From a virus, in IMG/VR virus record IMGVR_UViG_3300045988_154560: 18,251 nucleotides of DNA. The stretch is one strand, 5' to 3'. Shown one piece after another: positions 1,093 through 18,131 of this stretch (position 1 is the first letter of the stretch; each line of letters starts with the position of its first letter). Made by a program: the position numbers and the translations under genes. The notes under the pieces were generated by a model that worked only from the letters and a program-made list of their open reading frames with translations, did not search any database and was not told the DNA's origin.

Positions 1093-1108
1093 GAGAGGTG
1101 TAAATAAA

Positions 1109-1456
1109 ATGAAAGTAAAATGTGTAGATAGTTATTTAATGAAAGGTTTTTTAACTAAAGGAAAAATATATAATGTTGAATTAAATGAAGAACGTGGTTA
1201 CACTATTGTAGATGATGGAGGTAAATTATATGTATATGCACCATACAGATTTGTAGTGGTTGACAATTCACCAGTAGTAACTAATTTTAAAACAGTAGTA
1301 GCCATGACATCAAAGTTCAACGGTAAAAAAGTAGTATTATCTAGAACAAGCGAATATATCGTGTTAAGTGAAAACGACAGTAGTTATTTTGTTATAAATG
1401 ACAGTGGACAAGCAAGCAAATATCCAAAGTCAAATTTTCATATTGTAAGAGGTTAA
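1109..1456 (+). CDS. Hypothetical protein (115 aa)
   Basis: RBS AGAGAGGTG lies upstream of the ATG. The two halves of the protein look like diverged copies of a small beta-rich unit. No family recognised. Confidence 0.65.
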   Translation: MKVKCVDSYLMKGFLTKGKIYNVELNEERGYTIVDDGGKLYVYAPYRFVVVDNSPVVTNFKTVVAMTSKFNGKKVVLSRTSEYIVLSENDSSYFVINDSGQASKYPKSNFHIVRG

Positions 1457-1460
1457 CATC

Positions 1461-1652
1461 ATGAGAATTAATAAAGATGAAAGATTAAAAAGAAAAAATA
1501 AGATAGAAAACACAAACTACCTTGCAACTGTAGAAGTTAGGGACGCGATTATTTATATTAAAACCGCATACGGTTATAAAAACATAGTCCAAGCACAGGA
1601 AGTCTATAAAAATTGGAGAAAAGAATATTTAAAGGATATAAGGAGGTATTAA
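1461..1652 (+). CDS. Hypothetical basic protein (63 aa)
   Basis: Tightly packed after the previous gene, with RBS-like AAGAGG upstream. No family recognised. Confidence 0.55.
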   Translation: MRINKDERLKRKNKIENTNYLATVEVRDAIIYIKTAYGYKNIVQAQEVYKNWRKEYLKDIRRY

Positions 1653-1653
1653 A

Positions 1654-1770
1654 ATGATTAATCAATTATGGAGAAAATACAGATTATATTGTTATAAGAA
1701 TGGACTAGCAGATGGTAATTTTAAAAATTTTAGAGATTTTATGATAAAATACTATAAACTTAATGATTAG
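1654..1770 (+). CDS. Small hypothetical protein (38 aa, MINQLWRKYRLYCYKNGLADGNFKNFRDFMIKYYKLND)
   Basis: Strong AGGAGG (1641-1646) is 7 nt upstream of the ATG at 1654. The ORF starts 1 nt after the previous stop. Below the ORF-track length cutoff. Confidence 0.5.
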   Translation: MINQLWRKYRLYCYKNGLADGNFKNFRDFMIKYYKLND

Positions 1771-1919
1771 TTGCGTACAATATAATATAAGTGTTTTATA
1801 TTAAGCCTTATTAAATATAGTCAGACAACCTTTCATGACATTATTATATTTATCCTTTGTTTTATTAGTATTAGTATTTTTAATTTATCCGATTCATCTC
1901 AAAAATTAAAGCAGAATTA

Positions 1920-1945
1920 AGAGCAACAATAGTTGCTCTTTTTTC
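1920..1945 (+). terminator. Rho-independent terminator ending the left early operon
   Basis: Stem AGAGCAAC / GTTGCTCT with loop AATA, followed by TTTTTC. Confidence 0.8.
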
Positions 1946-1974
1946 TTGCAATTTTTTAAAAATATTTATATAAA
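1946..1974 (+). promoter_or_regulatory. Candidate sigma-A promoter for the SSB operon (TTGCAA-17 nt-TATAAA)
   Basis: TTGCAA at 1946-1951, 17-nt A/T-rich spacer, TATAAA at 1969-1974. It sits directly after the terminator and 80 nt upstream of the ssb ATG. Confidence 0.55.
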
Positions 1975-2054
1975 ATTATTAACACTTTTGAATAAAATAT
2001 CATACAATATAGTGTAAAGAAAATTAATAATATATGAAAAGGGGAATTTAAATT

Positions 2055-2480
2055 ATGAATAAGGTATTTATTAACGGAAACTTAACAAAGGATATGGATG
2101 TAAAAGTATTACCAAATGGTAACTATGTAGGTAAATTTACAATTGCCAACACAGTAGGATATGGAGATAAAAAGAAAACTTACTTCATTCCATGTACACT
2201 ATTCGGAAAGAGAGTAGAAAGCTTAGAAAAAATATTAGTTACAGGTGCAGGAGTATTAGTTGAAGGTCAATTAGATTATACAAGTGTAAAAGACGAACAA
2301 GGTAACTGGAAGAATTACACAAACGTTGTAGTAACAGAAATTGAAATAACAAAATTTAAACAAACTAACAATTATGACAATATGAGTTTAGAAGAATTAA
2401 GGGAAGAATGTAAAAATCAAAACATCAAATTTAGTTTCAAAGATAGTGCAGGAATGTTAATCAAGAAGCTAAATGCTTAA
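2055..2480 (+). CDS. ssb: Single-stranded DNA-binding protein (bacterial OB-fold type) with a C-terminal HeH/SAP-like motif
   Basis: The N-terminus MNKVFINGNLTKDMDVKVLPNG...YFIPCTLFGKRVESLEKILVTGAGVLVEGQL...NVVVTEIEI follows the canonical SSB OB-fold pattern. RBS AAGGGGA. The C-terminus MSLEELREECKNQNIKFSFKDSAGMLIKKL resembles a helix-extension-helix (SAP/Rho-N-like) motif rather than the acidic DDDIPF-type tail. Confidence 0.85.
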   Translation: MNKVFINGNLTKDMDVKVLPNGNYVGKFTIANTVGYGDKKKTYFIPCTLFGKRVESLEKILVTGAGVLVEGQLDYTSVKDEQGNWKNYTNVVVTEIEITKFKQTNNYDNMSLEELREECKNQNIKFSFKDSAGMLIKKLNA

Positions 2481-2494
2481 AGGAGTAGTTAATC

Positions 2495-2770
2495 ATGACA
2501 GAAGAACTTGATTTATTAGGTTTACTAATTGATAAAATTGAATATGAAATTACAATAAATAAAGATAGTTTAAAAGCTACAAAACATGACATTAAAAAAC
2601 TTGAAAAAAGTAAAGCTGATTTATTAGAAACAGGAATTGACGATTATGTTTTTGATAACAAGATAAACAGTATAATATATGTAAAAGAAACATTAGAAAA
2701 AAGAATAAATGTATTAAAGAAAGTTAAATACAGATTAGTAGTAAGTGAAAGAATGCTTAAATCACTATAA
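2495..2770 (+). CDS. Hypothetical coiled-coil protein (91 aa)
   Basis: RBS AAGGAG upstream and co-operonic with ssb. Heptad-like, K/E-rich sequence. No family recognised. Confidence 0.6.
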   Translation: MTEELDLLGLLIDKIEYEITINKDSLKATKHDIKKLEKSKADLLETGIDDYVFDNKINSIIYVKETLEKRINVLKKVKYRLVVSERMLKSL

Positions 2771-2803
2771 TAGTCATCACCATCACCTCTTAAATATAGA
2801 TTT

Positions 2804-2834
2804 AGGGTACACAATTACGTGTACCCTTTTATTT
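2804..2834. terminator. Hairpin terminator shared by the convergent + and - strand transcription units
   Basis: GGGTACAC (2805-2812) / GTGTACCC (2819-2826) with a 6-nt loop. It is followed by TTTTATTTT on the + strand and lies 3 nt from the stop of the - strand ATPase gene. Confidence 0.75.
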
Positions 2835-3827
2835 TACTCCTAAGTCTTTTAACATCTCATACATACTGATTTTAATTTCTATAGTTTTAAATCTGACCTT
2901 ACCAAATTGGAAATATCTTATTAAGTTATTAAAGCAACTGTTACCAACGTACTTATTATTTAAAAATGTGTTATCGTTGTGGTCGGAAGCTAAAACAGAG
3001 TAACATCTAGCCGTCTTGGTAGGCTTGTCTGTTATATAAAGTATGTCTTTTACAATGTTACCCCAAACCATGTATTTTTGACCCTTGTAGTCAACTGCAA
3101 AGTATTCATCACAATGTTTTAAGCTCATCGTTTCTACAAATGTATTACTATCTCTTAATGATTTATTGTCTATAGCATAATCACTGTATTTTGTATTACG
3201 AATAAGTTTACCAAATTTAGTTTCCTTTTTCATTTCTATAAACACATCGTTAGTACTATATTCTATAACCATTTCACCATCACGTGCTAATGTAAATCTC
3301 TCACCGTCATTAATTTTTATATTAAAATAAGTAAAGTAAGGATTTACTCTTGATATGTTGTTACCTAGGAAATACATTCTCACATTGTTTCTAGTTCTTG
3401 CTACTGTTTCATAAAAGTCCAAAGCGACATCAACTTCATTTGTTATATATCTCATACCTGCGCTACGGTCAACTAAAAATTCATCAAACATTATTGTTGT
3501 TACATTAGGGTATGCAACTGATTTATATCTTTGTGATACACTTAGAGCAACAGGAAAACCCGCGACATTACCGTCAACATAAAACTTCCCAAATTTAAAC
3601 TCAAGTTGATTATTTGGAAACTCTTTTCTTATATCGTCAAACCATTTATCATTATCTTTAAGTTCAGTTTTCCATCTTCTTAAGTATATGAATTGTTCAC
3701 CTTTCTTAAGAAAGTTTTTGATACATCTCTTTTTTAACCCATAACTCTTTCCAAATCCTCTATTTGTCAAAACAAAATTCCATATTGCGTTGTAACTACA
3801 TATTTTGTCATAATTATAAAATTCCAT
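2829..3827 (-). CDS. DNA encapsidation ATPase (phi29 gp16-like)
   Basis: ATG at 3827 follows AAGGAGG; the ORF-track start at 3866 has no RBS. Walker A-like VLTNRGFGKSY is followed by GEQFIYLRRWKTEL and a Walker B-like TTIMFDEF, the N-terminal signature I recall for phi29 gp16-family packaging ATPases. It is the last gene of the late operon, as in phi29. Confidence 0.9.
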   Translation of the reverse strand: MEFYNYDKICSYNAIWNFVLTNRGFGKSYGLKKRCIKNFLKKGEQFIYLRRWKTELKDNDKWFDDIRKEFPNNQLEFKFGKFYVDGNVAGFPVALSVSQRYKSVAYPNVTTIMFDEFLVDRSAGMRYITNEVDVALDFYETVARTRNNVRMYFLGNNISRVNPYFTYFNIKINDGERFTLARDGEMVIEYSTNDVFIEMKKETKFGKLIRNTKYSDYAIDNKSLRDSNTFVETMSLKHCDEYFAVDYKGQKYMVWGNIVKDILYITDKPTKTARCYSVLASDHNDNTFLNNKYVGNSCFNNLIRYFQFGKVRFKTIEIKISMYEMLKDLGVK

Positions 3828-3840
3828 AATTACCTCCTTA

Positions 3841-3864
3841 AAACAAAAGCACCGTAAAGGTGCC
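3841..3864 (-). terminator. Weak hairpin plus U-tract between the YvrJ-like gene and the ATPase gene (possible attenuator)
   Basis: The - strand RNA reads GCACC-UUUAC-GGUGC followed by UUUUGUUUU. The stem is only 5 bp, so this is at best a partial terminator. Confidence 0.3.
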
Positions 3865-3868
3865 ATTG

Positions 3869-4036
3869 TTATTTGTTAATTTTATCTTCTAAGTTATCCA
3901 TGCGTGTACATATTTCTTTTAATGTTACATTTAGATTACCTAGTGTTTCCGTAAACTTATTGTTATTGTTAAACATTACAACACAACAAGCAATTGGAAA
4001 ACCTACGTTTGATATTACGTTTACTATTTCTTCCAT
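3869..4036 (-). CDS. YvrJ-like small protein (55 aa); possible lysis or holin-associated protein
   Basis: ATG follows AAGGAGGTAATAAC. MEEIVNVISNVGFPIACCVVMF...NLNVTLKEICTRMDNLEDKI matches my recollection of the YvrJ family: an N-terminal hydrophobic GFP-containing helix followed by a coiled-coil tail. It occupies the position of the phi29 lysis genes, just upstream of the ATPase. Not in the ORF track because it is too short. Confidence 0.6.
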   Translation of the reverse strand: MEEIVNVISNVGFPIACCVVMFNNNNKFTETLGNLNVTLKEICTRMDNLEDKINK

Positions 4037-4082
4037 GTTATTACCTCCTTACTCATTTATGAACAATTTTATCAAGTGTTTG

Positions 4083-5828
4083 TTACCATATAGGTGATAG
4101 TTTTATTTTCATCCAGCTATCTCTATCTGAATTATTAAAACATGTGTATTTAAACAACTCATCAGTTCCACTACTATTAGTGTACGAATGTATAACTGTG
4201 TTATTACTATCTTTCAACGTAAATGTTGAACCATTTTGTATTCTTACATATAATTCATTTAACCCACTTGAACAAAAATAACTGTTCAATTTAATTGTTG
4301 GTGATGCTGAACTAACAATAGTCAAATAATTGTAGAAAGTATCGTTTGTATATGTGTAATTACCATCACTTGTACCAACAACAAACATATTAATTTTATC
4401 CAATAGTTGAACAGGCAAAATCTTACCTTTTCTTATTATCAAATCTTTACCTACACGATTGTATGAAGTATCGCACACTTCACAATTTATAAAATTAATA
4501 TTTGCTTTTGTAGTGCTAATATCAGTAACATCAAATTTTGAAGACATTACTAATGATAATATATTAAATTGATTACCATCACAAAGTCCTTCAAATTTTA
4601 CATAAATTCCACTAAGTTCTGCGACTCTAATATAATCAAAAACATTAGACCTAGCATTATTAAGATATACACCATTTGTTACTCCTTCAAATGAAATTGT
4701 ACTAAATTTCATTCCATTAACTTCACCTTTATATTTATCGGCGTAGGTATCAATATATACTCCATATTCTCCGCCAGTACATTGACCGCCTTTTATTATA
4801 TTTTCATTTATAAAGGTAGGTGTTGTTTGGCTTGATCCCTCTGTTCTTATATAAATAGCGTTTTTATTTGATGGGGCTTTTAAAGTTTGAAAATGTATTT
4901 CATTATAATTTATCCCCATTTGTGTACTATGCAAGATTAATGCATGGTCTAAATTAGACCTAACAAATCCTTTTAAATCAATATAGTTATAAGCACATTT
5001 ACTTTCGCTTGTACTATTTTTTAATTTAATAGCGTTTCCCTCTGCAAAAATATCAAATGTGGTTATTTTATTATAAGCGGTTTCTATCAATATACAACTT
5101 TCATTACCACTATAATACAATTCACCATCAATTTTTAAATTATTTTCGCCGATTGGTTTAATAGTAGTTTCAACTAAATATTTACCTTTTGGGATATATA
5201 CGCTTTTATATTTTGATAGTAAATTATTTACTAGCAAACCTATTTCTTTGGATTTATCATTTTTTGCACCAAATTGAAGTATATTAATTTCTTTATCTAT
5301 AATTATAAGTTCTGCGACTAAATTATCGTTTAAAAAGTGAATTAAACCATTATCTTCTATATCACTTTCTTTTTTAATTCTAACAATATAATAACCATCT
5401 CCACCATCGTTGATATTATAATATCCTAACGTTTTAACAATATCACCGTTTTTTAAGTCGGTATTTTTTAAATCTGTTATTGTGTTACAAAAACTCACCT
5501 TTTGTTCCAATTGTTTATTAATTGTGGTTATATTATTATTAATACTTTCGGTAGTGTTATCAAAAATTTCTTTATCTAATTTTTTATTTAGCATGTCAAT
5601 GTTAATTAGATTTTCTAAAGTCCCATCTTCTTCCCATTGACTAAGTAATTCATTTACTTCTTTTTCCAACCCCTCATTTTTTAACCACTCAAGTATAGCA
5701 CTAGAATTATTACATAACTCAATACATTCTTGTAGCTTTTGAAAGAATTTACATCTTAATTCTTCGTTTGTCATGTCTGAAAAATCATACACTCTTCTTA
5801 AAACATCTTCTGAAATTCCTCTTATCAA
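4083..5828 (-). CDS. Pre-neck appendage / tailspike protein with predicted right-handed beta-helix (pectate-lyase-like)
   Basis: TTG start 7 nt after AAGGAGGAG. GYYNINDGGDGYY and ILQFGAKNDKS (a FGAKGDG-like motif) are typical of pectate_lyase_3/tailspike N-terminal regions. These are followed by a long repetitive beta-rich region. The position after the lower collar equals that of phi29 gp12. Confidence 0.75.
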   Translation of the reverse strand: MIRGISEDVLRRVYDFSDMTNEELRCKFFQKLQECIELCNNSSAILEWLKNEGLEKEVNELLSQWEEDGTLENLINIDMLNKKLDKEIFDNTTESINNNITTINKQLEQKVSFCNTITDLKNTDLKNGDIVKTLGYYNINDGGDGYYIVRIKKESDIEDNGLIHFLNDNLVAELIIIDKEINILQFGAKNDKSKEIGLLVNNLLSKYKSVYIPKGKYLVETTIKPIGENNLKIDGELYYSGNESCILIETAYNKITTFDIFAEGNAIKLKNSTSESKCAYNYIDLKGFVRSNLDHALILHSTQMGINYNEIHFQTLKAPSNKNAIYIRTEGSSQTTPTFINENIIKGGQCTGGEYGVYIDTYADKYKGEVNGMKFSTISFEGVTNGVYLNNARSNVFDYIRVAELSGIYVKFEGLCDGNQFNILSLVMSSKFDVTDISTTKANINFINCEVCDTSYNRVGKDLIIRKGKILPVQLLDKINMFVVGTSDGNYTYTNDTFYNYLTIVSSASPTIKLNSYFCSSGLNELYVRIQNGSTFTLKDSNNTVIHSYTNSSGTDELFKYTCFNNSDRDSWMKIKLSPIW

Positions 5829-6146: not shown

Positions 6147-6800
6147 TTAATATACAAATAAGAACAAGTTTTCAAGTTCTTTGAAAATCATTTCATCTAT
6201 ATTAATTAATACTGCTCTCCATTTTTCAAGGAGTTCTGCACTTGATGTTACACCTATATTACCTTGAGAAATTAGTTCATATTCTTCGGTATTGTTTGAC
6301 CTATTTGATACACTATTGTTTGCGTTAGTTGTTGAGTTATTTGTTGAATTACTATTTGACTTACTAGCAGATGTCATATACTTGTCTAAGTCATCAATTT
6401 TGTTTTGTGGAGTATCATTTGCTATTGATAAGTCATTGCTAGTAGAATTATTATTACTGTTAGATGTAGCTTGGCTATTTCCCTCTGTTACTCCATTTAA
6501 TTTTCTTACATAACTTTCTTTTAAATCTTTGTTTAACATAAAGTCTATATTCTGACATCTTATCTCTGTTTCATATAACTGCTTATACTTTGGATAAATG
6601 TCATTTAATGTGGAAATTAGATGTTGTTTAAAGATGTTAATATTGTCAAACCCTATTTCATGAAACATAAAATGCTGAAAGAATTTTTCCTCAAAGTAAG
6701 GCTTTAGTTCATTATTGTATAAATTGTAAGGTTGGTCAAATAAGTTATAACTTTTATCTCTATAAATGTAATAAAGTTGTAACGTGTATTTACTACTCAT
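6147..6800 (-). CDS. Lower collar protein (phi29 gp11-like) with an Asn/Ser-rich low-complexity insert
   Basis: The start is probably the ATG at 6800 (MSSKYT..., RBS GAGGTGGAAG), overlapping the connector stop. FFQHFMFHEIGFDNINIFKQHL...YPKYKQLYETE fits the REIGFET-type motif I recall from Picovirinae lower collar proteins. The gene order connector, lower collar, appendage matches phi29. Confidence 0.65.
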   Translation of the reverse strand: MSSKYTLQLYYIYRDKSYNLFDQPYNLYNNELKPYFEEKFFQHFMFHEIGFDNINIFKQHLISTLNDIYPKYKQLYETEIRCQNIDFMLNKDLKESYVRKLNGVTEGNSQATSNSNNNSTSNDLSIANDTPQNKIDDLDKYMTSASKSNSNSTNNSTTNANNSVSNRSNNTEEYELISQGNIGVTSSAELLEKWRAVLINIDEMIFKELENLFLFVY

Positions 6801-7653
6801 TTTCTTCCACCTCTGTTTCTTCCTCAACATAATACTTACTAATCATTTCTTTATTTGGTAATACTCTAACATTTAATCCAAACTTTTTATTAATTTGCTC
6901 ACATGCTTGTAATCTAACTTTGTACATTAACATTGCGTTTGTGTGAATAAAATCATTATTAGAATTTACTTCATCAGTTAATAATCTTTCTTTCTTTTCA
7001 AAGTTGTTATTTAAAGATAGGAAGCTTAAAATCTCTCTTTCAAGTTCATACTTGTATGAATTTAACTTGTCAGCTACATATGGAGTAGACATGGTTAAAA
7101 CCTCCAAAGGTGCTTCTCCCATTATTTCTCTATTTGCTAAAATGAAAGGCTCAAAGTTTTCAACTTTATCAAATATTAATTGTAATGACTTCTTAGTTTT
7201 TTCAGTAGCATTGATAAACCAAGGGAACTTTTGTTGATTGATGTTTGCTCTTATACACATTTCAACTTCCAACATTCTTTCCGCATAGTTAGCAATGTAG
7301 TCCCTAGTTGCTTTTGCTAAGTCATTATTTCTAATTAGCACACAGTTATCATTATTTATATATTTAATAGTTTTTACATAATTATAACCCGAAGTTATAA
7401 CTTCGGTACTTTCACCGTTAATATTCATATTAGCACCATATGAACAAGGTACTGATATTAATCCTAAATCTTTATCATCGCTGACTAAGCAAAGACCGTG
7501 TTCGTAAAGTGCGTTTTCAATATATCTACTGTCCATTGTTTCGGGTAAATTCTCCCATGTAAACATGTTTAAAGCTAACATTTTATAATAGTCATAAATT
7601 CTTCTATAATTTTTGACTTTAAATGCGTCTATCTCATGCTTATTTTTACTCAC
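6793..7653 (-). CDS. Head-tail connector / upper collar (portal) protein (phi29 gp10-like)
   Basis: GTG start 9 nt after GGAGG. FTWENLP, EKKERLLTDEVNSNND and ACEQINKKFGLNVRV match motifs I recall from phi29 gp10 (FEWENLP, EKKERMVTDEV, ACEKINELYGLNVKV). Confidence 0.9.
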   Translation of the reverse strand: MSKNKHEIDAFKVKNYRRIYDYYKMLALNMFTWENLPETMDSRYIENALYEHGLCLVSDDKDLGLISVPCSYGANMNINGESTEVITSGYNYVKTIKYINNDNCVLIRNNDLAKATRDYIANYAERMLEVEMCIRANINQQKFPWFINATEKTKKSLQLIFDKVENFEPFILANREIMGEAPLEVLTMSTPYVADKLNSYKYELEREILSFLSLNNNFEKKERLLTDEVNSNNDFIHTNAMLMYKVRLQACEQINKKFGLNVRVLPNKEMISKYYVEEETEVEENE

Positions 7654-8947
7654 TATCGTATACCTCCGTATTTCCTTGTATTTGTGCTACTGAATAATCG
7701 CCTAATGTTGCACCGTTGTCAATGTGCCATAATGTTAATCCTCTGTTAAAGATATCTTTTATTTCTTCAAGATATTCACGTGGAATTTTTTCTCCTACAA
7801 TGTTACAAGTGTTTGTTTTAATAAAGTTAAAGTATTTTCTAGAATTTACATTAATATATTTCCACTTATTAACCTTATAACCGTATTTAGTAAAATAATC
7901 ATGAATTCTATGCTTATATCTAAAATCTAAACCGAATTCTATTATATCTACTTTCCTATTACCATTTACCAAGTTAAATAACGTATCGTTACCACTTGTT
8001 TTAATAGAGTTAGGAGTATTTATTAAATCTGTTACTTTAGCATTCGCCATAGATGATATTTCAAAGTTTGATAATTTATTTCTTTCATCTAATTGACTAT
8101 TTGCTAAGTTATTAGAAAGTTTATCAAAATGTTGGTTTATACCTGCTTGTACAATACCCATTGCACCATTAGCAACTCCGAGAGCGTTACCTGTAAATAA
8201 ACTTCCTACTGCACCTATGGCATTAGCACCACCACTCATTATATTACCAATGGTACTTTTTTGAAAACTTAAATTATTAGTTGCAACACCTTGCCTTAAC
8301 GATAAATCATTTTCCATCATTGCATTAATGTTACCTTGATGAAAACTTGAAGAACTTGTTGCTAAGAATTGAGAGTATGCGCTCGAAACTACTGGTAACA
8401 TTAAAGGACTATTATTAACCATACCGTTTAAATTCCCGTTATAATCACCTTTATAACCTTCAACATAAAGATTGTATTTACTTTCTGTTGCGACATTTGT
8501 CGCTTTTACTCTTAACTTTAAAGTATGATTCTCACACAATTCGGGTTTTATAATTAAAGGGTTGTTCATATAATCGGTTACCATGAAATACCTAAACGGA
8601 AATGCGAATAATTTAGGCTCAAACGTAGCCATACCAGGGTCGCTAGTTGGAAATGCATTTATTTGTTTTAATAGTTTGTCTATTGTATCGACAAATAACA
8701 TTCTATAGCATTTAGGTATTCCACCCTTTGGAGTCCCGTACCTGTCTACGTCAAAACTACATTCGGTTATTGTACTCATATCATCAACTTCAATAAAAGG
8801 ATTATAAGTTAAACTTTGTATAGTATCTACAAACCCTAAATAGGTTGCACTACTAACTTTATTCATTGGAATACAGTAATAGTAAAGCCCTACTGGAATA
8901 TTTTCTAATATACTACTTTCTTGGTCATTACCTACTTGAATCGCCAT
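7646..8947 (-). CDS. Tail knob protein, middle and C-terminal portion (phi29 gp9-like) including a Gly/Ala-rich hydrophobic loop
   Basis: ATG at 8947 is 7 nt after AGGGGG. The C-terminus FTKYGYKVN...FNRGLTLWHIDN, and the loop IMSGGANAIGAVGSLFTGNALGVANGAMGIV, resemble the gp9 C-terminal region and its membrane-active loop as I recall them. The gp9 N-terminal domain is absent; it is found on the upstream ORF. Confidence 0.75.
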   Translation of the reverse strand: MAIQVGNDQESSILENIPVGLYYYCIPMNKVSSATYLGFVDTIQSLTYNPFIEVDDMSTITECSFDVDRYGTPKGGIPKCYRMLFVDTIDKLLKQINAFPTSDPGMATFEPKLFAFPFRYFMVTDYMNNPLIIKPELCENHTLKLRVKATNVATESKYNLYVEGYKGDYNGNLNGMVNNSPLMLPVVSSAYSQFLATSSSSFHQGNINAMMENDLSLRQGVATNNLSFQKSTIGNIMSGGANAIGAVGSLFTGNALGVANGAMGIVQAGINQHFDKLSNNLANSQLDERNKLSNFEISSMANAKVTDLINTPNSIKTSGNDTLFNLVNGNRKVDIIEFGLDFRYKHRIHDYFTKYGYKVNKWKYINVNSRKYFNFIKTNTCNIVGEKIPREYLEEIKDIFNRGLTLWHIDNGATLGDYSVAQIQGNTEVYDSE

Positions 8948-8958
8948 AAACACACCCC

Positions 8959-10506
8959 CTAATCATTTATTATTGACCTATAACGATAATCACTATTTGG
9001 CGTTCTATCATTTTCCATGATATTTGTTCCTGTTTGTTTTGCTTCTATTACATGGATTGACCCATCATCATTTTTAGAGATAAACATAACTACATGACCG
9101 TTATCTGAGTTACCTCTAATAAATACTAAATCACCCATTTTCAAGTTGTCTAATGTTGTTTCTTTACCGTCGTTAATTTGCGTATAAGTTGTACGTGATA
9201 TTTTTATCCCATTATCATTGTATGCCCATTGCATTAACCCCGAGCAATCTGTTCCACTATCTGACCCTAAAGGAGGATAATTGCCACCGAAAACATACGG
9301 TTTACCTAATAATTTTCTTGCACTTGCCACTACATTTTGTCTTAATACACTAGAACTTTCCTCTTGTCTATTATACGGAGCAGGAATGTACCCCTTACCG
9401 TCATTATCTGTTATAGTTCCACCGTTTAAATTTGGAATTGGTTTATAATTATAATCAGCATTTAAAAATACATTAGCCTCTGCTTTTCTTCTATTTCTTA
9501 AACCCTCTTCGAATTGTGTACCTGGCATAATAACTGTTGTTTTCCATACCTCTGCAATACTTTCTTTACTATCCCCATTTATATATTTAGTAAAAATTGA
9601 CTTACTTGTTAAGCTTCCTGTGTTGTAGTAAAAAGATACAAATGCATCAAATTCATTTTGTTTCATTTTATTCATGTCGTAGCCATATCTAACAAAGCTA
9701 TCGTAAACGTATTTTGAATAATTAGTATATAAGCTTTGTCCTAATACTTCTGAGGCTTGTTGCTCCGTACATACTGGGGCAAGTTGGTTATAGTGTTCGG
9801 GGTCGTATTTGCTAGTAGTCCCATACCCAATTGTATAAGTACCATCACCTAAATTGTAAGGAGTTGCAGAAAATCCCTCTGTCTGTTTAATAAACCAAAG
9901 ACCGTTACCACTAACATAACCCTCTTTATATAATGTAGTTTGGCTACTTGATGAGCCACCACCACTACCACCGTTTATCATTCCAAGTCTTGTTGATGAA
10001 GTTAAGAAATAACAACCTTTATTTGTATAATCATAAGCGTTAGTTATAGTTTGAACTTTTAACTCTCCAACTTCTAAATCCTCTGACTCTAATAAGTTAT
10101 CTAATTGAACATCTCCGTTATTATCAAAACGATAAGCATGTTCTCTCTCGATATAACTTTCCATTCTAGAAAAATTAATATCAAAGTAATAAGTTTGTAA
10201 TACATCTAGCTTTAATGTGAGCTTTGTACTATTTTCAGTTACATATTCTTTATTTATAATGAAAAAGTATTCCCATCTTTTCCCGTTGTTCCACATGCAG
10301 TAATTATAATCCATACAATCATCTATATACTTGTCAATTGTTAAACTTCTTTCTTTTCTCAAGTAAGTACAATCTGTCATTGAGTATTTAGCTTTACTCA
10401 TAAACCAGTTTATTTGGTTAGTTGAATTTTTAAAATTAACAGTATTGTTATAATTAATGTCAAGCTCGGGAATACTACAATAAAATACATTTGATATCCT
10501 TGGCAT
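8959..10506 (-). CDS. Tail protein: gp9-like N-terminal domain fused to lysozyme (GH24-like) and NlpC/P60 endopeptidase domains
   Basis: ATG at 10506 (MPRISNVFY) is 6 nt after GGGGGG; the ORF-track start at 10578 would overlap the capsid gene and its terminator. The N-terminal part (NQINWF...LDVLQTYYFDINF...IEREH) resembles the phi29 gp9 N-terminus. A GGSGGGSSSS linker follows. The lysozyme motif is IKQTEGFSATPYNLGDGTYTIGYGTT. The NlpC/P60 Cys and His motifs are GTDCSGLMQWAY and GDLVFI...GHVVMF. Confidence 0.85.
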   Translation of the reverse strand: MPRISNVFYCSIPELDINYNNTVNFKNSTNQINWFMSKAKYSMTDCTYLRKERSLTIDKYIDDCMDYNYCMWNNGKRWEYFFIINKEYVTENSTKLTLKLDVLQTYYFDINFSRMESYIEREHAYRFDNNGDVQLDNLLESEDLEVGELKVQTITNAYDYTNKGCYFLTSSTRLGMINGGSGGGSSSSQTTLYKEGYVSGNGLWFIKQTEGFSATPYNLGDGTYTIGYGTTSKYDPEHYNQLAPVCTEQQASEVLGQSLYTNYSKYVYDSFVRYGYDMNKMKQNEFDAFVSFYYNTGSLTSKSIFTKYINGDSKESIAEVWKTTVIMPGTQFEEGLRNRRKAEANVFLNADYNYKPIPNLNGGTITDNDGKGYIPAPYNRQEESSSVLRQNVVASARKLLGKPYVFGGNYPPLGSDSGTDCSGLMQWAYNDNGIKISRTTYTQINDGKETTLDNLKMGDLVFIRGNSDNGHVVMFISKNDDGSIHVIEAKQTGTNIMENDRTPNSDYRYRSIIND

Positions 10507-10522
10507 TGTTAACCCCCCTATT

Positions 10523-10550
10523 AAAATAAAAAGGGGTATAACCCCCTTTA
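10523..10550 (-). terminator. Hairpin plus U-tract immediately after the capsid gene (probably a partial terminator)
   Basis: The - strand RNA reads AAAGGGG-GUUAUA-CCCCUUU followed by UUAUUUU. It lies between the capsid stop (10556) and the RBS of the next gene. Confidence 0.6.
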
Positions 10551-10555
10551 TTAAA

Positions 10556-11605
10556 TTATTCGTTATCCTTAACAACAAATCTTACACAGTTAACGAAGTT
10601 ACAACTTGCAACGATTCCCCATCTGTTAAACCATACATTTGTGTAAAGTGCTTGAGGATTCCTAAATGTTTCTGAAGAATTTAGGGTGTCCCAAATTTGT
10701 AAGGCTTCTTTATCACAAATTATACATTGTGTTTCAGTATCTTCTGCATATGTTACTTCACCAGTACCTTGACATTTTACAAAATTGTCAATTGGTAACA
10801 CGTGTAAATTAATTTGGTCGTAACTTACGTGGAAAGCTTGTGCTAAAAGTTGAACGTCCATAACTGCAAGTAAATCTGTAGGTACGAAACATACTAAATC
10901 CTCTGGTTTTGAGTATGTCATTACACCCTGTCCATTATATTGATTTGATAAGAATCCCATTTTTAAGATATAAGATTTTATTGCGGTAACTATGCTTTGA
11001 GCTTTTTCTTTTAATGTATAAGTGTCGTATGCAGTTTTATCAATTGCTACTTCAGCTCCTTTTATGTGAGATAAAGCATGTTTAATTAATAAGAAGTCAT
11101 CATATTCAGCAGAGTTAAGTGGTGCTTGTAAAATTCTTGATGTTAATTCACTTAATCCGTTTTCTGTTCTAAATGCTCCCTTTAATTCTTCATCAGATAT
11201 AGTTGCTTGGTATTGCATTTGTTTATTCTCTGTATAATACTCAACTTTAACATTTGGGTCTTGTCTTGTTAATAAATCAGTAGCTAATTGAGTACCACTT
11301 GTTTGTCTAGTTCTGTCTTTACCTTTAACAATATCAACAAATATTGATTCTATTGATTTACCATATGGTAACATTCCCTTTTTGAACAGTTTATATGGGT
11401 TTTCATAAGACTTACTAAAAAATCTTTGTTTAGCAACTTGGTTTGTAAGAACGTTTATAAATTCATTTTTTGCAGTTGGGTACTCACTAATAATTTTCCC
11501 TACTTCGTGCATACTTTCTTTAGTTACCTCACCTATTCTGTCTTGAAATTCTTGACTCGCTGCACTCGAAAGTGCTTTCGTAAAAGTTACATTATCTAAT
11601 GCCAT
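10556..11605 (-). CDS. Major capsid protein (349 aa)
   Basis: Position between the scaffold-like gene and the tail genes (the phi29 gp8 slot), a strong RBS (GGGGGAAAT) and a downstream hairpin terminator are typical of a highly expressed capsid gene. The sequence family was not firmly recognised by eye. Confidence 0.7.
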   Translation of the reverse strand: MALDNVTFTKALSSAASQEFQDRIGEVTKESMHEVGKIISEYPTAKNEFINVLTNQVAKQRFFSKSYENPYKLFKKGMLPYGKSIESIFVDIVKGKDRTRQTSGTQLATDLLTRQDPNVKVEYYTENKQMQYQATISDEELKGAFRTENGLSELTSRILQAPLNSAEYDDFLLIKHALSHIKGAEVAIDKTAYDTYTLKEKAQSIVTAIKSYILKMGFLSNQYNGQGVMTYSKPEDLVCFVPTDLLAVMDVQLLAQAFHVSYDQINLHVLPIDNFVKCQGTGEVTYAEDTETQCIICDKEALQIWDTLNSSETFRNPQALYTNVWFNRWGIVASCNFVNCVRFVVKDNE

Positions 11606-11896: not shown

Positions 11897-12100
11897 GTTA
11901 TACCTCCTTTATTTTTTGAATATTATATTCTTATTAAAGCCCACCTTTAAGTGGACTTTATAAAAATACAAAAACGCAATTATTTAAATGTATATAATAG
12001 TGTTGCAAATCACAATGTTACGATTAAAGGCTCTTCACCTTTGCACTTAACCGTAAGTATTATATTTAAACTTTTAAACAACTACTCAATATATTGTATG

Positions 12101-12136
12101 AAAAATAACAAAAAAGGTTAACAAAATGTTAACCTT
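12101..12136 (-). terminator. Rho-independent terminator ending the right early operon
   Basis: The - strand RNA reads AAGGUUAAC-AUUUU-GUUAACCUU followed by UUUUGUUAUUUUU, 8 nt after the sigma-like gene stop. Confidence 0.85.
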
Positions 12137-12143
12137 ATTAGTA

Positions 12144-12833
12144 TTAGTCAAGTAACAACTCTTTTATTTCTTCCTCTAGATTATTTTCTTTAATCTTATT
12201 TCTTATATATTCTACTCTTAAATGTACAGTGGCCCTTGTAAATTTTTTACCTTGTTTTGATTTATAACCATTGTCATTTAAATACTTAGCTATTTCTGTA
12301 CAACTTTTACCCTCAGCTAATTGATACAAAATTATTCTATGAATTACATTATAGAATTGATTACCACAACTCACTATCTCATCTATTGCAGTTCTTAAAG
12401 TACCAAAGTCATACTCGTCATCTATTCCCATATATCTTCCAATCATATCTTCTTTTTCACTATCACCATTATTAGGTAGAATAAAATCTGTAGAGTAGTC
12501 AGACCCAAACTCATTAACTTTTGTTACTCTATCATTATCCCTTAATTTACAAGCTAATTCATTAAATACAACTTTAGCAACAAATGTATTTGCACCACTT
12601 TTTTCATAATCTAATTTATCCCACACTTTAGCTAATTTCATACATGCAATACTAAAACAATCGTCATAATCAAGTCTTAATCTATCAAATCCACTTCTAT
12701 ATTTAGTGTACATTAAACTTACTCTACCATGAATAAATTTTATATTCTTTTCACAATAATCATTGAAATCATCGTAAATTATTCTTTCCTTTAAATCTCC
12801 AAACTTATCTTTTCTCTTTATAACCTTACTCAT
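12144..12833 (-). CDS. Sigma-70-family-like transcription factor (229 aa)
   Basis: ATG at 12833 is 7 nt after GGGGG. A region-2-like block is DYDDCFSIACMKLAKVWDKLDYEKSGANTFVAKVVFNELACKLRD. A region-4-like helix-turn-helix block is ILYQLAEGKSCTEIAKYLN...TRATVHLRVEYIRNKIK. Assigned by motif pattern only. Confidence 0.55.
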   Translation of the reverse strand: MSKVIKRKDKFGDLKERIIYDDFNDYCEKNIKFIHGRVSLMYTKYRSGFDRLRLDYDDCFSIACMKLAKVWDKLDYEKSGANTFVAKVVFNELACKLRDNDRVTKVNEFGSDYSTDFILPNNGDSEKEDMIGRYMGIDDEYDFGTLRTAIDEIVSCGNQFYNVIHRIILYQLAEGKSCTEIAKYLNDNGYKSKQGKKFTRATVHLRVEYIRNKIKENNLEEEIKELLLD

Positions 12834-12846
12834 TTTTATACCCCCA

Positions 12847-15003
12847 TTATCTTTCAAAAAAATTATTCGCGTTAATCATATATGGTTGCTCTTGAATTAT
12901 TGTACCACCTTTTATAATTTTGGACTTCTTTGATTTTATTAGTCCTTTTATCTTTTGGGTACACTCTTTATCTTTATAATAATATATGTCATCGTCTTTA
13001 CTATAATATTTCAAACTTGCTAATTGTTTTGCTGAATACTCACACATTTCAAATACACTAATATCATCTAATTGTTTCATTATTGTATCAGTTAAACCGC
13101 AACATTTAATTTCCCACTCATGAGTTTTACTGTTCTTTTCTGCATAACGTTTTGACCCTAAGTATTTGAAGTCTTCAAAGCACATCTCATTATCCCAAAG
13201 ACCATATACCTTTTTACCAATTTCAACACCTTTTACTTCTTCAAGTGTACCGTATAAATGTAGACTATCAGTATCGCAATACATAAATCTTTCGTAATTA
13301 GCATTAATTGCTTGGACTAAATATTGTTTAGCCCAACTAGTTATAAATGTTGCCATTGGTAGATAAACCGTGTTACTTGTTACCATCTCATGAGTATGCT
13401 CGATAGTAAAAACACCACAATCATTTATAAAATTAGTTATTTCGGAAGCCCCTGCCATACCGAATTTACCGTAAAGCCCATTTTGCATTAATTTAGCGAA
13501 TGCTCTTAATGCTCCCTCATTTTGTTGTTTGATTTTAGACCAAAAGTCTATATAATTCTTAAACAAGTTATTAGTACCTCTAAATGCCATATGACCATTT
13601 AACTTGTATGCTTTTACGTGATAGCACTCAAAAAGCAAATCTAATAATACATTTGTTAAACGTAAATGGAGTGTAACCTTTTTACCATCTTTAATATTAT
13701 TTTTTAAGCATTCTCTACCACTGAAATACTTATTATCTTTTACTTGAAGGAATGCCATTTTATTCTTTTTAACCTGTAAATCATAAACAATTATATCTTG
13801 TATATATAAAGGGTAAGTTTGTTTATATTCTTCATTCATATTTTTATAAGGTGTATCTCTGTATTGTGCTTCACCATAAGGCAATAACCTTGATGTCATA
13901 ATGAAAGGGTACAATGAGTTAACATCTAAAACAACCCCATTTTTATTTTTTCTTTTACTAAACTTTTTAACATTGTTAAACTCAACTGATGAAAGGCCAC
14001 CATAGTAAGAATGTCTTTGCCATGCATCAGCAAAGTATGGTTGTTGAGGGTATAGTGCTTCAAATACTATATTACTTAAACTCTCTTGCGTATCTTGTTT
14101 TCCTACTAATTTAAAAAATTCTGTTTTCATTAACTTACTGTCAACCATATCAAAAACACATGCATCTGTAAAACTATTTTGTTTGTTTAAATAATCTTCT
14201 AAAACTGTTAATTTATAGTTAGCTAAAGCTTGACCACTATTAGTAAGTTTACTGTATCTGACTTTCTCACCATTTAAATCAATACCGTTTATCTTTAACA
14301 ACTTCACTAAATAACTTAATCCGTAAACATCTTCATAGATGTAGGTCATTTCTTCCTCTGTTAATTCTTCTTGTAAAGTTCTTTCTTTTTCATAGTCTAA
14401 ACCATCTTTACCTAACTCCAAACCAAGAAAATCAGAACAACATTTCTTTAAGCTGAAAGGAGTAAGCTTAAAAGTATCATAGAAGTTTATTTTTCCAAAA
14501 GGACTCGCTATTGTTAACTTATAAAAAACACCGTCTTTCATAACTAACCTATATTCAAATGGATTTAACTTATTATTTTTCTTATCTGTATTACTATAAT
14601 TTAAAACTTCGTAATATTTTTCAAACTCGTTCCACTGCTTTTTTGTAAAAATGTCATCTTGTTTTTGATTATTCCCATATCTTTCAACAAAGTCCAATAT
14701 AAATGGTTTAACATCATATAAACAATTATGAGCAAATAAGTTAATCTCTTTACAATCAATATTCAATAACATATCGTTAAAATTAGAAACATTATTGTAC
14801 CAGTAACAAACATCACTATCATTATCACAACTCATTAATGCTATAGAGTATGTTAACATCTCACTTTTATTATTTATTGCACATGCTTCTATATCAAATG
14901 CAAAATTTAACACATCTTTTTCATCTCCTGTTATTCTAGATTTATTTATATAATTCTTAATACCCTTATCTTTAATAGTCTTTAACCTTTCATTTAAATT
15001 CAT
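12847..15003 (-). CDS. Protein-primed family-B DNA polymerase (phi29 gp2-like)
   Basis: Exonuclease motifs: FAFDIEA, FAHNCLYDVKPF and YIYEDVYGL. Polymerase motifs: VLDVNSLYP (A), KLMQNGLYGKFG (B), YCDTDSLH (C) and GSKRYA (KxY). These closely parallel phi29 DNAP motifs DVNSLYP, KLMLNSLYGKF and YCDTDSIH. Confidence 0.95.
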   Translation of the reverse strand: MNLNERLKTIKDKGIKNYINKSRITGDEKDVLNFAFDIEACAINNKSEMLTYSIALMSCDNDSDVCYWYNNVSNFNDMLLNIDCKEINLFAHNCLYDVKPFILDFVERYGNNQKQDDIFTKKQWNEFEKYYEVLNYSNTDKKNNKLNPFEYRLVMKDGVFYKLTIASPFGKINFYDTFKLTPFSLKKCCSDFLGLELGKDGLDYEKERTLQEELTEEEMTYIYEDVYGLSYLVKLLKINGIDLNGEKVRYSKLTNSGQALANYKLTVLEDYLNKQNSFTDACVFDMVDSKLMKTEFFKLVGKQDTQESLSNIVFEALYPQQPYFADAWQRHSYYGGLSSVEFNNVKKFSKRKNKNGVVLDVNSLYPFIMTSRLLPYGEAQYRDTPYKNMNEEYKQTYPLYIQDIIVYDLQVKKNKMAFLQVKDNKYFSGRECLKNNIKDGKKVTLHLRLTNVLLDLLFECYHVKAYKLNGHMAFRGTNNLFKNYIDFWSKIKQQNEGALRAFAKLMQNGLYGKFGMAGASEITNFINDCGVFTIEHTHEMVTSNTVYLPMATFITSWAKQYLVQAINANYERFMYCDTDSLHLYGTLEEVKGVEIGKKVYGLWDNEMCFEDFKYLGSKRYAEKNSKTHEWEIKCCGLTDTIMKQLDDISVFEMCEYSAKQLASLKYYSKDDDIYYYKDKECTQKIKGLIKSKKSKIIKGGTIIQEQPYMINANNFFER

Positions 15004-15821
15004 TAATCGTATACTCCTCTCATTTCATCTAAACCATGATATTTTCTTAAACTTGAAGTAACTGCTTCGTAAATTCCTCTTTCAACTCTTTCCTCATTAC
15101 CAACGATACTATCTTCGGGGTATCTATCCAATAAATCTCTTAAAACTTCTTTTATCCATAAATCCCTTTGCAGAGGCGATAAAGAATTGTACTCTGCTCT
15201 AATCATTTCTTGAATGTATGGTTTACAGCTTAATTGAATAGTTGGTGATGACATAAATTCATCATTAAACCAAGTATCATTTTCTCTGCTATCTGTTAAT
15301 GTTTTATAAACATTAGCAAATTTGATTTGCTTCATATCTTGCTTGAATTTCTTTATCATTTCCCTTTTTGTTTTATTGTCTGTGATAATTATATTATCTA
15401 AATGTTGAACTGGTACACCATCGTAGAAAAATGATTTTTTATCATAGTAACTTAAAAATATATCTTTACCAGTTAAATAATCTATTTGCATTTTAGGTAA
15501 ACCCATTGTTTCAAGTGCTTTAAGTGTTATATCAACTTCTTTGTTATACTTTTTAATTACTTGGTTGTATTGATAATCAATTGAACTCTTATATTTCTTC
15601 CTTGCTTTTTCTTCTTTTTTAATAGCTGAATTTAAACCTGTAGTAATTTTGTTAATTGCTTGGTTTAGTTGGGTTTTTGTAAGAGTTTTGCCTTGTAAAT
15701 AACTAGGAATTGCATAACCCAATAACTCATACTTATTTACTAGATATTTAATTTTTTGTTTATCACTCTTTTTTGTGAAGTCTGCTCTCTTTAACCCACT
15801 TAATTGTCTTTTTGCGTTCAT
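15003..15821 (-). CDS. Putative terminal protein (272 aa)
   Basis: Immediately upstream of the DNAP gene and translationally coupled to it (TAATG overlap), as for phi29 gene 3 and gene 2. The size is similar to phi29 TP and the N-terminal half is Lys-rich. No sequence motif recognised; the call rests on synteny. Confidence 0.55.
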   Translation of the reverse strand: MNAKRQLSGLKRADFTKKSDKQKIKYLVNKYELLGYAIPSYLQGKTLTKTQLNQAINKITTGLNSAIKKEEKARKKYKSSIDYQYNQVIKKYNKEVDITLKALETMGLPKMQIDYLTGKDIFLSYYDKKSFFYDGVPVQHLDNIIITDNKTKREMIKKFKQDMKQIKFANVYKTLTDSRENDTWFNDEFMSSPTIQLSCKPYIQEMIRAEYNSLSPLQRDLWIKEVLRDLLDRYPEDSIVGNEERVERGIYEAVTSSLRKYHGLDEMRGVYD

Positions 15822-17972: not shown

Positions 17973-18131
17973 TTATTTTCCGCTACTTTTAAATGCATTC
18001 AATAATAAATCAAATTTAAGACTGCATCTTTTTACGTACCAATCATGGCTTTGTAATATTTCTCTAATCTTATGGTTATTTATTTAAACTCACCCCCTCG
18101 GCTCTTTATTTGTGTCCCTCTCTATGATTCT

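Follow-up and report, generated by a model that had tools for sequence, protein, structure and literature searches.

Tethered lysozyme and NlpC/P60 domains on a probable two-gene tail knob in a phi29-like phage

Tail knobs and tail lysins in described phages

In phi29, the tail knob is made of gp9, a single chain of 599 aa whose N-domain contacts the lower collar (PMC6542822). The protein is represented by PDB 5FB4 and 5FB5, and knobs of its type correspond to Pfam PF16838 plus PF20934. The wall-degrading module carried on the tail, a glycosidase and a peptidase, is a separate, free-standing protein, gp13 (Phage_lysozyme2 PF18013 and M23 PF01551), and the phage has its own endolysin, gp15. Virion proteins that combine a glycosidase with a cysteine peptidase for local wall digestion are also found in Andhra gp10 and P68 gp11 (GyH and CHAP), in siphophage Tal, and in the diffocin hub-hydrolase CD1368, where the anchor is either a knob-inserted helix bundle or a domain of the Tal or Prophage_tail kind. 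In Andhra, the knob chain comes back to the N-domain and completes its sheet (PMC9710869).

The podophages of Clostridium perfringens (Guelinviridae: phiCP7R, phiCPV4, phiZP2, CpV1, phi24R, CPS1 and CPS2) encode a "lysozyme-peptidase" and a short "tail protein" as a pair located between the capsid and connector genes. The first ORF (~520-530 aa) comprises the N-terminal part of a gp9 homologue (N-part), a GH24 domain and a peptidase, and the second (~400-415 aa) corresponds to the C-terminal part (C-part). Volozhantsev (2012) described the domain composition of the lysozyme-peptidase and found that virions contain both proteins; in purified phiCP7R virions, both were detected by mass spectrometry, as separate proteins of 59 kDa and 46 kDa (PMC3362512). 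The GenBank note on phi24R gp12 names tail, lysozyme and peptidase domains.

The knob is also split into N-part and C-part proteins in phi29-like phages of Gram-negative hosts (Phanie, Astrid and DU_PP_III), where the published model assembles six heterodimers with beta-sheets shared between chains and where the split goes together with inserted domains (PMC11476376).

A gene pair between the capsid and connector genes

The stretch of DNA analysed here (the window) is a complete phi29-like genome of 18.25 kb with 146-nt inverted terminal repeats. On its minus strand, the capsid gene (10556-11605) is followed by two co-directional ORFs, ORF1 and ORF2 (Table 1), and then by the connector gene (6793-7653), which is the position of a gp9-type knob gene. 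The order and sizes match those of CPS2_8/9 and phi24R gp12/13. The terminator-like hairpin between the capsid stop (10556) and ORF1 may reduce transcription into the tail genes, and the same search found no terminator-like site between ORF1 and ORF2. At the other end, ORF2 shares its last 8 nt with the connector gene, which starts at GTG 7653.

ORF1 runs from ATG 10506 to its TAG, and ORF2 from ATG 8947 to a stop at 7646, in different frames ((10506-8947) mod 3 = 2). The first-pass annotation had reported a fresh ribosome-binding site and an ATG at 8947, six nucleotides after the ORF1 stop. Both elements are present, but the spacer from TAG to ATG measures 11 nt and the ribosome-binding site overlaps the stop codon. 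The longest ORF2 frame would reach GTG 8953, but all homologues start with M-[AS]-I, which fits ATG 8947 as the start. The two genes are probably co-transcribed and translationally coupled, and the overlap of stop codon and ribosome-binding site suggests that this translation is equimolar.

Table 1. Features of the knob locus, in window coordinates.
Feature	Position	Strand	Basis
Terminator-like hairpin	10529..10549	-	9-pair stem AAAGGGGGTTATACCCCTTTT, then T-rich tail
ORF1 ribosome-binding site AGGGGGG	10513..10519	-	6 nt upstream of ATG 10506, read from sequence
ORF1, 515 aa, knob N-part + lysozyme + NlpC/P60 peptidase	8959..10506	-	Domain and profile searches, homologues
ORF1 aa 1-111, N-terminal beta-sandwich (tail-tube-like) knob domain	10174..10506	-	Pfam, AF2, Foldseek, hhalign
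ORF1 aa 112-179, extended N-to-C connecting segment, ~gp9 123-184	9970..10173	-	hhalign, unsplit-knob profile
ORF1 aa 178-188, flexible Gly/Ser linker NGGSGGGSSSS	9943..9975	-	Sequence; pLDDT <50
ORF1 aa 192-350, GH24 phage lysozyme domain	9457..9933	-	Pfam, PDB matches, invariant columns
ORF1 aa 385-515, NlpC/P60 cysteine peptidase domain	8962..9354	-	Pfam, PDB matches, invariant columns
Junction: ORF1 TAG (8961-8959), ribosome-binding site AGGGGG (8960-8955), ORF2 ATG 8947	8948..8961	-	Sequence
ORF2, 433 aa, knob C-part, ~gp9 200-594	7646..8947	-	Pfam, phrogs, PDB 5fb4, hhalign, profile
ORF2 aa 239-269, hydrophobic stretch rich in Gly/Ala, equivalent to the membrane-active L-loop (channel loop) of phi29	8141..8233	-	Alignment, hydropathy
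ORF2 aa 301-433, most conserved C-terminal knob domain	7649..8047	-	Alignments

ORF1 begins as a knob protein. Residues 17-111 match Caud_tail_N (Pfam, E 2e-9), residues 1-111 are confident in the AF2 model, with phi29 gp9 as best Foldseek match (5fb4, E 2e-7), and hhalign places residues 17-177 on gp9 21-184 (probability 98.9). In the monomer model, residues 112-188 have low pLDDT and no confident fold, as expected over 112-179 because this segment requires partner strands. Beyond the linker, residues 207-343 match Phage_lysozyme (PF00959, E 2e-18; pLDDT ~90 over the domain), together with PDB lysozymes and endolysins, and residues 401-493 match NLPC_P60 (PF00877, E 6e-19), together with PDB NlpC/P60 hydrolases. 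Among the matches of the latter domain are the diffocin hub-hydrolase (8v3w_H) and the Tal of a Clostridium prophage (L022). The catalytic residues of the lysozyme (E210, T225) and of the NlpC/P60 domain (C421 in a DCSG motif, H471, E488) do not vary among 33 homologues, the most distant of them 46% identical. Homologues of 504-538 aa have the same three domains at 46-98% identity, and this architecture recurs in hundreds of 90%-identity clusters.

ORF2 matches phi29_gp9_C (PF20934, E 6e-29), columns 192-583 of phrog_2248 and PDB 5fb4, and hhalign aligns it to gp9 323-596 (probability 99.6). The monomer model of ORF2 has a mean pLDDT of 31.6. Its Gly/Ala-rich stretch aligns to gp9 ~430-470 and is the hydropathy maximum of the protein. 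In profile searches, the ORF1/ORF2 pair matched phrog_16615 (E 1e-60) and phrog_16740 (E 1e-69, the ORF2 match). All motifs quoted in the first-pass annotation are present: NQINWF (aa 30-35), LDVLQTYYFDINF (aa 100-112) and IEREH (aa 119-123) in ORF1, and ESSILENIPVGLYYYCIP (aa 10-27), FTKYGYKVN (aa 352-360) and GLTLWHIDN (aa 403-411) in ORF2.

Collinearity with unsplit knobs and conservation of the split

On a reference profile of ~45 unsplit knob proteins, ORF1 7-173 maps to states 8-173 (phi29 gp9 ~11-181) and ORF2 14-420 to states 186-576 (phi29 gp9 ~200-594), the two knob parts being contiguous and without overlap. The 590-column tail-protein profile phrog_2248, which covers both halves, agrees with this collinear mapping. 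ORF1 (1-179) and ORF2 jointly cover gp9 ~11-594, with the Caud_tail_N domain in the first, and phi29_gp9_C and the membrane-active loop in the second. The two parts lie in separate cistrons, not in one polypeptide. This mapping, with GH24 and NlpC/P60 domains at the C-terminal side of ORF1, bears out the earlier proposal that both ORFs are parts of one gp9-type knob whose halves are separated by a lysozyme/NlpC-P60 cassette. Direct hhalign comparison with phi29 gp9, or with a 7-sequence alignment of unsplit knobs, takes in ORF2 only from residue ~106-109, and the assignment of ORF2 1-108 to gp9 ~200-322 therefore depends on the larger profiles together with unsplit homologues that serve as intermediates.

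The break falls at about gp9 residue 181-200, a site tolerant of inserted domains. In metagenomic single-chain homologues from phi29-like genomes, an enzyme is inserted between N-part and C-part at the site of the ORF1/ORF2 break, a lysozyme in P0345 (812 aa) and P0350 (850 aa) and an M23 domain in P0426 (743 aa, on 3 contigs). Their C-parts are ~28-29% identical to ORF2 over nearly its full length; unlike the window, they have one polypeptide of 743-850 aa and a single recognised enzyme domain.

Alternatively, ORF1 could be an accessory tail lysin that replaces gp13 and uses a knob-derived N-domain as an adaptor, with fewer than six copies per particle and with ORF2 alone building the tube. 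The tail-tip lysin of Andhra and P68 is indeed a separate protein in two copies, the phiCP7R mass spectrometry gave no stoichiometry, and ORF1 112-188 lacks a confident fold as a monomer. However, ORF2 begins at profile state 186 and could not stand in alone for gp9 because the collar-binding N-domain is wholly absent. A six-frame scan of the genome returned exactly one N-part and one C-part, and no second N-part. The lower-collar contact of the phi29 N-domain (PMC6542822), the chain that returns to the N-domain sheet in Andhra (PMC9710869), the single-chain homologues, in which a hydrolase between the parts forces a 1:1 ratio, and the suggestion of equimolar translation at the junction all argue against an accessory role, which we consider improbable. 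Two polypeptides from adjacent genes, ORF1 with the tethered enzymes and ORF2 with the rest, very probably form the tail knob together.

The split gene pair was found in 9/9 related genomes examined, at 29-98% identity (including L003, L005, L018, L019, L100, L101, CPS2 and phi24R). Spacers in these relatives vary between a 4-nt overlap and 13 nt, and the relative frames 0, +1 and +2 are all seen, so neither sequencing error nor recoding accounts for the split. Given the strong domain E-values, the occurrence of the pair in all nine genomes and the ORF1 architecture in hundreds of clusters, the pairing is not due to chance. The first-pass annotation had allowed for one ORF interrupted by a sequencing error. 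Such an error, an assembly error, a pseudogene, or programmed readthrough or frameshifting into one fused chain would suit L100, where the two ORFs share one frame with a 12-nt spacer. Against this stand the stop and restart in nine independent relatives over that identity range, the length of 504-538 aa kept by ORF1 in hundreds of 90%-identity clusters, the variability of spacer and frame, the ribosome-binding site that ORF2 has of its own, and the separate 59-kDa and 46-kDa proteins of phiCP7R. The conserved split, the variable junctions and the separate virion proteins effectively refute a single fused chain or an error.

In the Guelinviridae, the gp9 homologue is split at the identical site, and the homologues are ~29-34% identical to the window proteins (~31% for the capsid protein). 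In contrast to the NlpC/P60 domain of the window, their C-terminal peptidase is M23 (PF01551; CPS2 E 1e-29, phi24R E 8e-32), and the virion presence of both proteins is documented only for such relatives (phiCP7R), which are ~30% identical and carry that other peptidase domain. The Phanie type has a small N-part and a C-part protein with additional N-terminal Ig-like domains, whereas in the window ORF2 has no N-terminal extension (residue 14 aligns at state 186) and the additional domains are enzymes placed C-terminally in the N-part protein. The two-gene tail knob with tethered enzymes is thus a variant of a known design and not a new one, because the C. perfringens podophages have already been described with a two-gene layout. 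All of them share it, and the "distinct solution" for envelope penetration suggested by the first-pass annotation does not stand. New here are the NlpC/P60 domain in place of M23 and a subclade in which a holin is present while no endolysin is recognisable.

Proposed assembly, entry and lysis

We propose that ORF1 provides the N-terminal tube-like beta-sandwich, which docks on the lower collar in phi29, and the extended connecting segment, and that ORF2 provides the distal beta-sheet domain, a strand returning to finish the N-domain sheet, the channel loop and the C-terminal domain. The N-domain sheet would then be completed in trans, and six ORF1 with six ORF2 chains would make a knob that corresponds to the gp9 hexamer of phi29. 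Past the break, ORF1 continues through the flexible linker into the GH24 muramidase and the NlpC/P60 endopeptidase, and since these enzymes are fused to ORF1 at the break, each knob protomer would carry its own tethered wall-degrading module. A 1:1 pairing within a hexameric knob would give six lysin copies per virion, unlike the two of Andhra; where the enzymes would sit on the knob is deduced from a published verbal account of its topology. The tethered module would digest the thick Gram-positive wall, both its glycan strands and its peptide stems, and let the knob reach the membrane, and the ORF2 channel loops would presumably exit after wall digestion to form a conduit for the DNA.

Phages of the phi24R/phiCP7R type encode a separate amidase (endolysin), unlike the window. 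In the subclade defined by ORF1 identity of at least 82% (the window, L018, L019 and L100), no peptidoglycan hydrolase other than ORF1 was recognisable in these genomes, and a holin is present; more distant relatives (ORF1 identity of at most 69%) keep an Amidase_3+SPOR endolysin. These observations would also suit a main role for ORF1 in lysis from within, as a holin-released endolysin whose knob N-part is secondary. We regard this as highly improbable. With a conserved N-part that has no second copy in the genome, ORF1 is still needed structurally. Reading of the sequence reveals no evident internal start and ribosome-binding site from which a free enzyme could be made, and small ORFs may hide an unrecognised endolysin. 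A role in lysis from within would add to the structural role and not substitute for it.

Tentatively, the knob-tethered lysozyme/NlpC-P60 may be the sole peptidoglycan hydrolase of the subclade, with ORF1 serving entry as a virion component and holin-dependent lysis as unassembled or excess protein, the Amidase_3+SPOR endolysin having been lost after this takeover, and gp9 181-200 being a site where enzymes or binding domains can generally dock and where gene fission and fusion have happened repeatedly. As to entry, the first-pass annotation saw the function of gp13 fused to half of the knob. The function is analogous, but GH24 PF00959 and NlpC/P60 PF00877 are non-homologous to the PF18013 and M23 domains of gp13, and ORF1 is not a gp13-type lysin. 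With these unrelated domains, the tethered module would take the role that falls to the separate tail protein gp13 in phi29.

The tail-knob gene and its two cistrons

The two minus-strand ORFs of the first-pass annotation (ORF1 and ORF2, see the table) were found as it had described them, and all the motifs that it quoted lie where it had placed them. Pfam searches identified Caud_tail_N (residues 17-111), Phage_lysozyme (207-343) and NLPC_P60 (401-493) in ORF1, and phi29_gp9_C in ORF2. ORF2 does begin at a fresh ATG (8947) with its own ribosome-binding site, but the spacer from the TAG of ORF1 to this ATG is 11 nt, not 6 nt as first counted. The ribosome-binding site (AGGGGG) overlaps the ORF1 stop, and the frame of ORF2 differs from that of ORF1.

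A PDB sequence search returned the tail knob of phi29, gp9 (5fb4), for both ORFs, with ORF1 16-160 corresponding to gp9 20-168 and ORF2 110-421 to gp9 324-595. On PHROG 2248, a 590-column tail-protein profile over both halves, ORF1 6-213 fell on columns 6-214 and ORF2 11-422 on columns 192-583. On a profile of about 45 unsplit knobs (phi29, B103, GA-1, Karezi, Athos, LE1-1, CI644P3 and metagenomic representatives), ORF1 7-173 covered states 8-173 and ORF2 14-420 covered states 186-576, that is, residues ~11-181 and ~200-594 in phi29 gp9 numbering, the few states in between being covered by ORF1 174-179 and ORF2 1-13. Because these profile spans are contiguous and do not overlap, and because scanning the entire genome in six frames recovered exactly one N-part and one C-part (the portions of the knob before and after the break), the two cistrons correspond to the two parts of one gp9-type knob, as had been proposed.

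Direct hhalign comparison of the ORF2 family with phi29 gp9, or with a 7-sequence alignment of unsplit knobs, covered ORF2 only from residue ~106-109, because the region past the break is very variable; its first 108 residues were placed only by the larger profile and intermediate homologues. A third search for ORF2 homologues, with a diverse 7-sequence alignment, again retrieved the abundant 78% clade and did not deepen the alignment, and the AF2 model of ORF2, based on a shallow alignment (78-98% identity), had a mean pLDDT of 31.6, too low for placing the break on the gp9 structure by fold comparison.

The same pair of cistrons is present in related genomes, with ORF1 identities of 96-97% (L018, L019), 82% (L100), 69% (L101), 65% (L005) and 46% (L003), and, at ~29-31% identity, in CPS2 and phi24R, which infect C. 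perfringens. The knob is unsplit in Enterococcus phage Athos, C. innocuum phage CI644P3 and Eggerthella phage LE1-1. At the junction, relatives show anything between 4 nt of overlap and a spacer of 13 nt, and ORF2 lies in relative frame +2 (window, L019, CPS2, phi24R), +1 (L018, L003, L005, L101) or 0 (L100). A split kept with such varying junctions and frames rules out a sequencing error in a single ORF, and the variation also argues against a conserved readthrough or frameshift. The split is real and old. In phi24R gp12, the deposited CDS extends two codons beyond an in-frame stop (...KVGDKV*Q*), and the annotation probably overshoots the true end by 6 nt.

Features of the window and of the compared genomes and proteins
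Sequence	Feature	Coordinates (strand)	Description
Window	Inverted repeats	1-146, 18106-18251	146 nt, 93% complementary
Window	Non-coding stretch	1653-2054	~400 nt
Window	Holin and gp16 packaging ATPase genes	2829-4036 (-)	ATPase gene directly after holin gene
Window	Holin gene	3869-4036 (-)	phrog_4898
Window	Appendage gene	4083-5828 (-)	581-aa pectate-lyase-like protein
Window	ORF2	8947-7646 (-)	433 aa, knob C-part
Window	ORF1	10506-8959 (-)	515 aa, knob N-part with lysozyme and NlpC/P60
Window	Terminator-like hairpin	10529-10549 (-)	Between capsid gene and ORF1
Window	Non-coding stretch	11897-12143	~250 nt
Window	Gene of 237-aa protein	12144-12857 (-)	Between polymerase and scaffold genes
Window	ORF upstream of polymerase gene	15003-15821	272 aa, no family match
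L018	Appendage gene	12374-14473	699 aa, family unknown
L019	Appendage gene	13191-14531	446-aa GDSL lipase-like protein
L100	Appendage gene	12660-14852	730-aa NosD-like protein
phi24R (L002, JN800508)	gp12	3992-5557	Deposited CDS
Clostridium sp. LY3-2 prophage (L022, NZ_JAMDLQ010000060.1)	Tal	1024-3996	991 aa, siphophage-type; Prophage_tail + NlpC/P60 + Phage_lysozyme
P0345	Single-chain knob		812 aa; Caud_tail_N + Phage_lysozyme + gp9_C
P0350	Single-chain knob		850 aa; Caud_tail_N + Phage_lysozyme + gp9_C
P0426	Single-chain knob		743 aa; Caud_tail_N + Peptidase_M23 + gp9_C

The break site in other knobs

ORF2 was searched exhaustively against 1.84 billion representatives, with 82 matches at E ≤ 1e-30. 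The best 150, each standing for one 50%-identity cluster, were classified. Roughly 103 of these are C-part-only proteins of ~400-480 aa (median near 420 aa), usually labelled merely 'tail protein', 39 are ordinary unsplit knobs, and three more (P0345, P0350 and P0426) are also unsplit but hold a large insert at the break site. All three are true single ORFs on phi29-like contigs (three contigs for P0426) and are collinear with ORF1 plus ORF2; in P0345, residues 6-401 align with ORF1 3-375 and residues 442-806 with ORF2 15-419. Insertion of wall-degrading domains is therefore tolerated at the equivalent of gp9 ~181-200, and the window shows a version in which the gene is additionally broken after the insert. 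In rough C-part distances, which do not constitute a supported phylogeny, the insert-bearing single chains adjoin split forms, and fission or fusion may have occurred more than once.

P0341 (633 aa, lysozyme plus C-part) was considered as a knob split before the enzyme, but the ~220 nt between the start of its contig and the ORF hold stops and no recognisable N-domain, and it was treated as ambiguous or as an assembly-end artefact. Large unassigned extensions lie before the C-part in P0338 (366 aa of a 754-aa protein) and at the C-terminus of P0320 (546 aa) and P0394 (903 aa); the knob therefore takes additions at several places.

The first-pass annotation had suggested that the arrangement would be a distinct solution for envelope penetration, yet the same layout is already documented in isolated C. 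perfringens phages. In phiCP7R, phiCPV4 and phiZP2, the gp9 homologue has 399 aa, 'much smaller' than phi29 gp9, and a 529-aa protein combines a tail domain (1-150), a lysozyme (200-350) and an M23 peptidase (400-500); both proteins were detected in virions, and the larger one was compared with gp13, the separate tail-associated lysin of phi29 (Volozhantsev et al., 2012; PMC3362512). The GenBank note on phi24R gp12 agrees with this tail, lysozyme and peptidase composition, and PHROGs holds separate families for the two knob halves. A two-protein knob with Ig-like inserts has been described in phi29-like phages of Gram-negative hosts (2024 review, PMC11476376). Our literature search found no explicit statement that the knob gene of the Gram-positive systems (C. 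perfringens phages) is split by a lysin cassette, and no report of an NlpC/P60 version; the peptidase is M23 in the C. perfringens phages, whereas it is NlpC/P60 in the window. The division of the knob gene by a lysozyme and NlpC/P60 cassette is confirmed and its interpretation supported, but as a variant of an architecture known from isolated phages. A wall-degrading function is indeed fused to half of the knob, but this hydrolase module is analogous and unrelated to gp13, which consists of PF18013 and M23.

The ORF1 enzymes and the proposed working of the knob

Lysozyme residues Glu210 and Thr225 and NlpC/P60 residues Cys421 (DCSG motif), His471 and Glu488 are invariant in 33 homologues (to 46% identity), and on this conservation the ORF1 enzymes look active. 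AF2 modelled ORF1 with confidence at 1-111 and 190-515 and as disordered at 112-188; Foldseek with this model returned phi29 gp9 as the best match, followed by NlpC/P60 hydrolases and GH24 endolysins. Inspection by eye around the ORF1 linker revealed no ribosome-binding site for an internal start giving a free lysin. Nearest to the NlpC/P60 domain are clostridial cell-wall hydrolases and the diffocin hub-hydrolase. The best segment of the LY3-2 prophage Tal is 57% identical to the ORF1 enzymes, with NlpC/P60 and lysozyme in reversed order; such domains therefore circulate among tail lysins of clostridial phages, and the likeness hints at a clostridial host and at domain shuffling among these lysins.

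In the knob, an N-terminal beta-sandwich sits on top and touches the lower collar, and the chain returns to complete the N-domain sheet before forming the internal channel loop and the C-terminal domain (PMC9710869; PMC6542822). The knob-homologous part of ORF1 stops inside the connecting stretch or where that stretch ends, and ORF2 opens with the conserved next strand. We infer a knob of six ORF1 and six ORF2 chains, in which the N-domain sheet would be completed in trans and which would bear six Gly/Ser-tethered muramidase-endopeptidase modules. These would digest the wall locally, after which the channel loops of ORF2 would build a membrane conduit, as proposed for phi29.

Genome content, lysis genes and implications

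The 18,251-bp window has inverted terminal repeats and a phi29-type gene set: a B-family DNA polymerase of the protein-primed kind, the gp16 packaging ATPase, a Phi29_MCP capsid protein, the gp10 connector, a lower collar, a pectate-lyase-fold protein resembling the pre-neck appendage, an SSB and a holin. It therefore represents an entire linear phage genome of the phi29 type, presumably replicated by protein priming, with a GC content of ~28%. A megablast of the knob region against 50,697 phage records found no near-identical DNA, and the closest isolated phages share ~30-34% protein identity with the window; in metagenome assemblies, homologues of ORF1 and ORF2 form hundreds of 90%-identity clusters and lie on 17-20 kb contigs.

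By its position upstream of the polymerase gene, the 272-aa ORF is the candidate for the terminal protein. The 237-aa protein, kept in relatives in a 229-aa version, has weak matches to Sigma70 region 2 and recombinase/HTH-like families ('Sigma70_ECF weak' in L005 and L101) and may serve the phage as a sigma-like late regulator, taking the role of phi29 gp4. The hairpin before ORF1 may attenuate tail-gene expression relative to the capsid gene. Rfam recognised no family at gathering score in the whole window, nor a phi29-type pRNA; two non-coding stretches are listed in the table. The appendage (receptor-binding) gene differs between genomes whose knob genes are 82-97% identical, and this swapped gene looks like a host-range cassette.

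Among all window ORFs of at least 60 aa, no other peptidoglycan hydrolase or dedicated endolysin was recognisable, and L018, L019 and L100 likewise have a holin and no other recognisable peptidoglycan hydrolase. In L101, L005 and L003 (69% identity or less), an Amidase_3+SPOR endolysin gene follows the holin. This distribution of genes raises the possibility that, in the subclade of the window, the knob lysin also serves as endolysin, with apparent loss of the separate endolysin in an abundant low-GC (~28%) clade known so far from metagenome assemblies only. A virion lysin doubling as lysis enzyme would, if true, matter in practice for enzybiotics against clostridia-like hosts.

None of this alters how phi29-like infection is understood in general. 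The gp9 ~181-200 site can accept either enzymes (GH24, M23, NlpC/P60) or binding domains, and a break in the gene at this site leaves function intact, which is useful in annotating the very many metagenomic phi29-like phages and in engineering small phages or their tail lysins.
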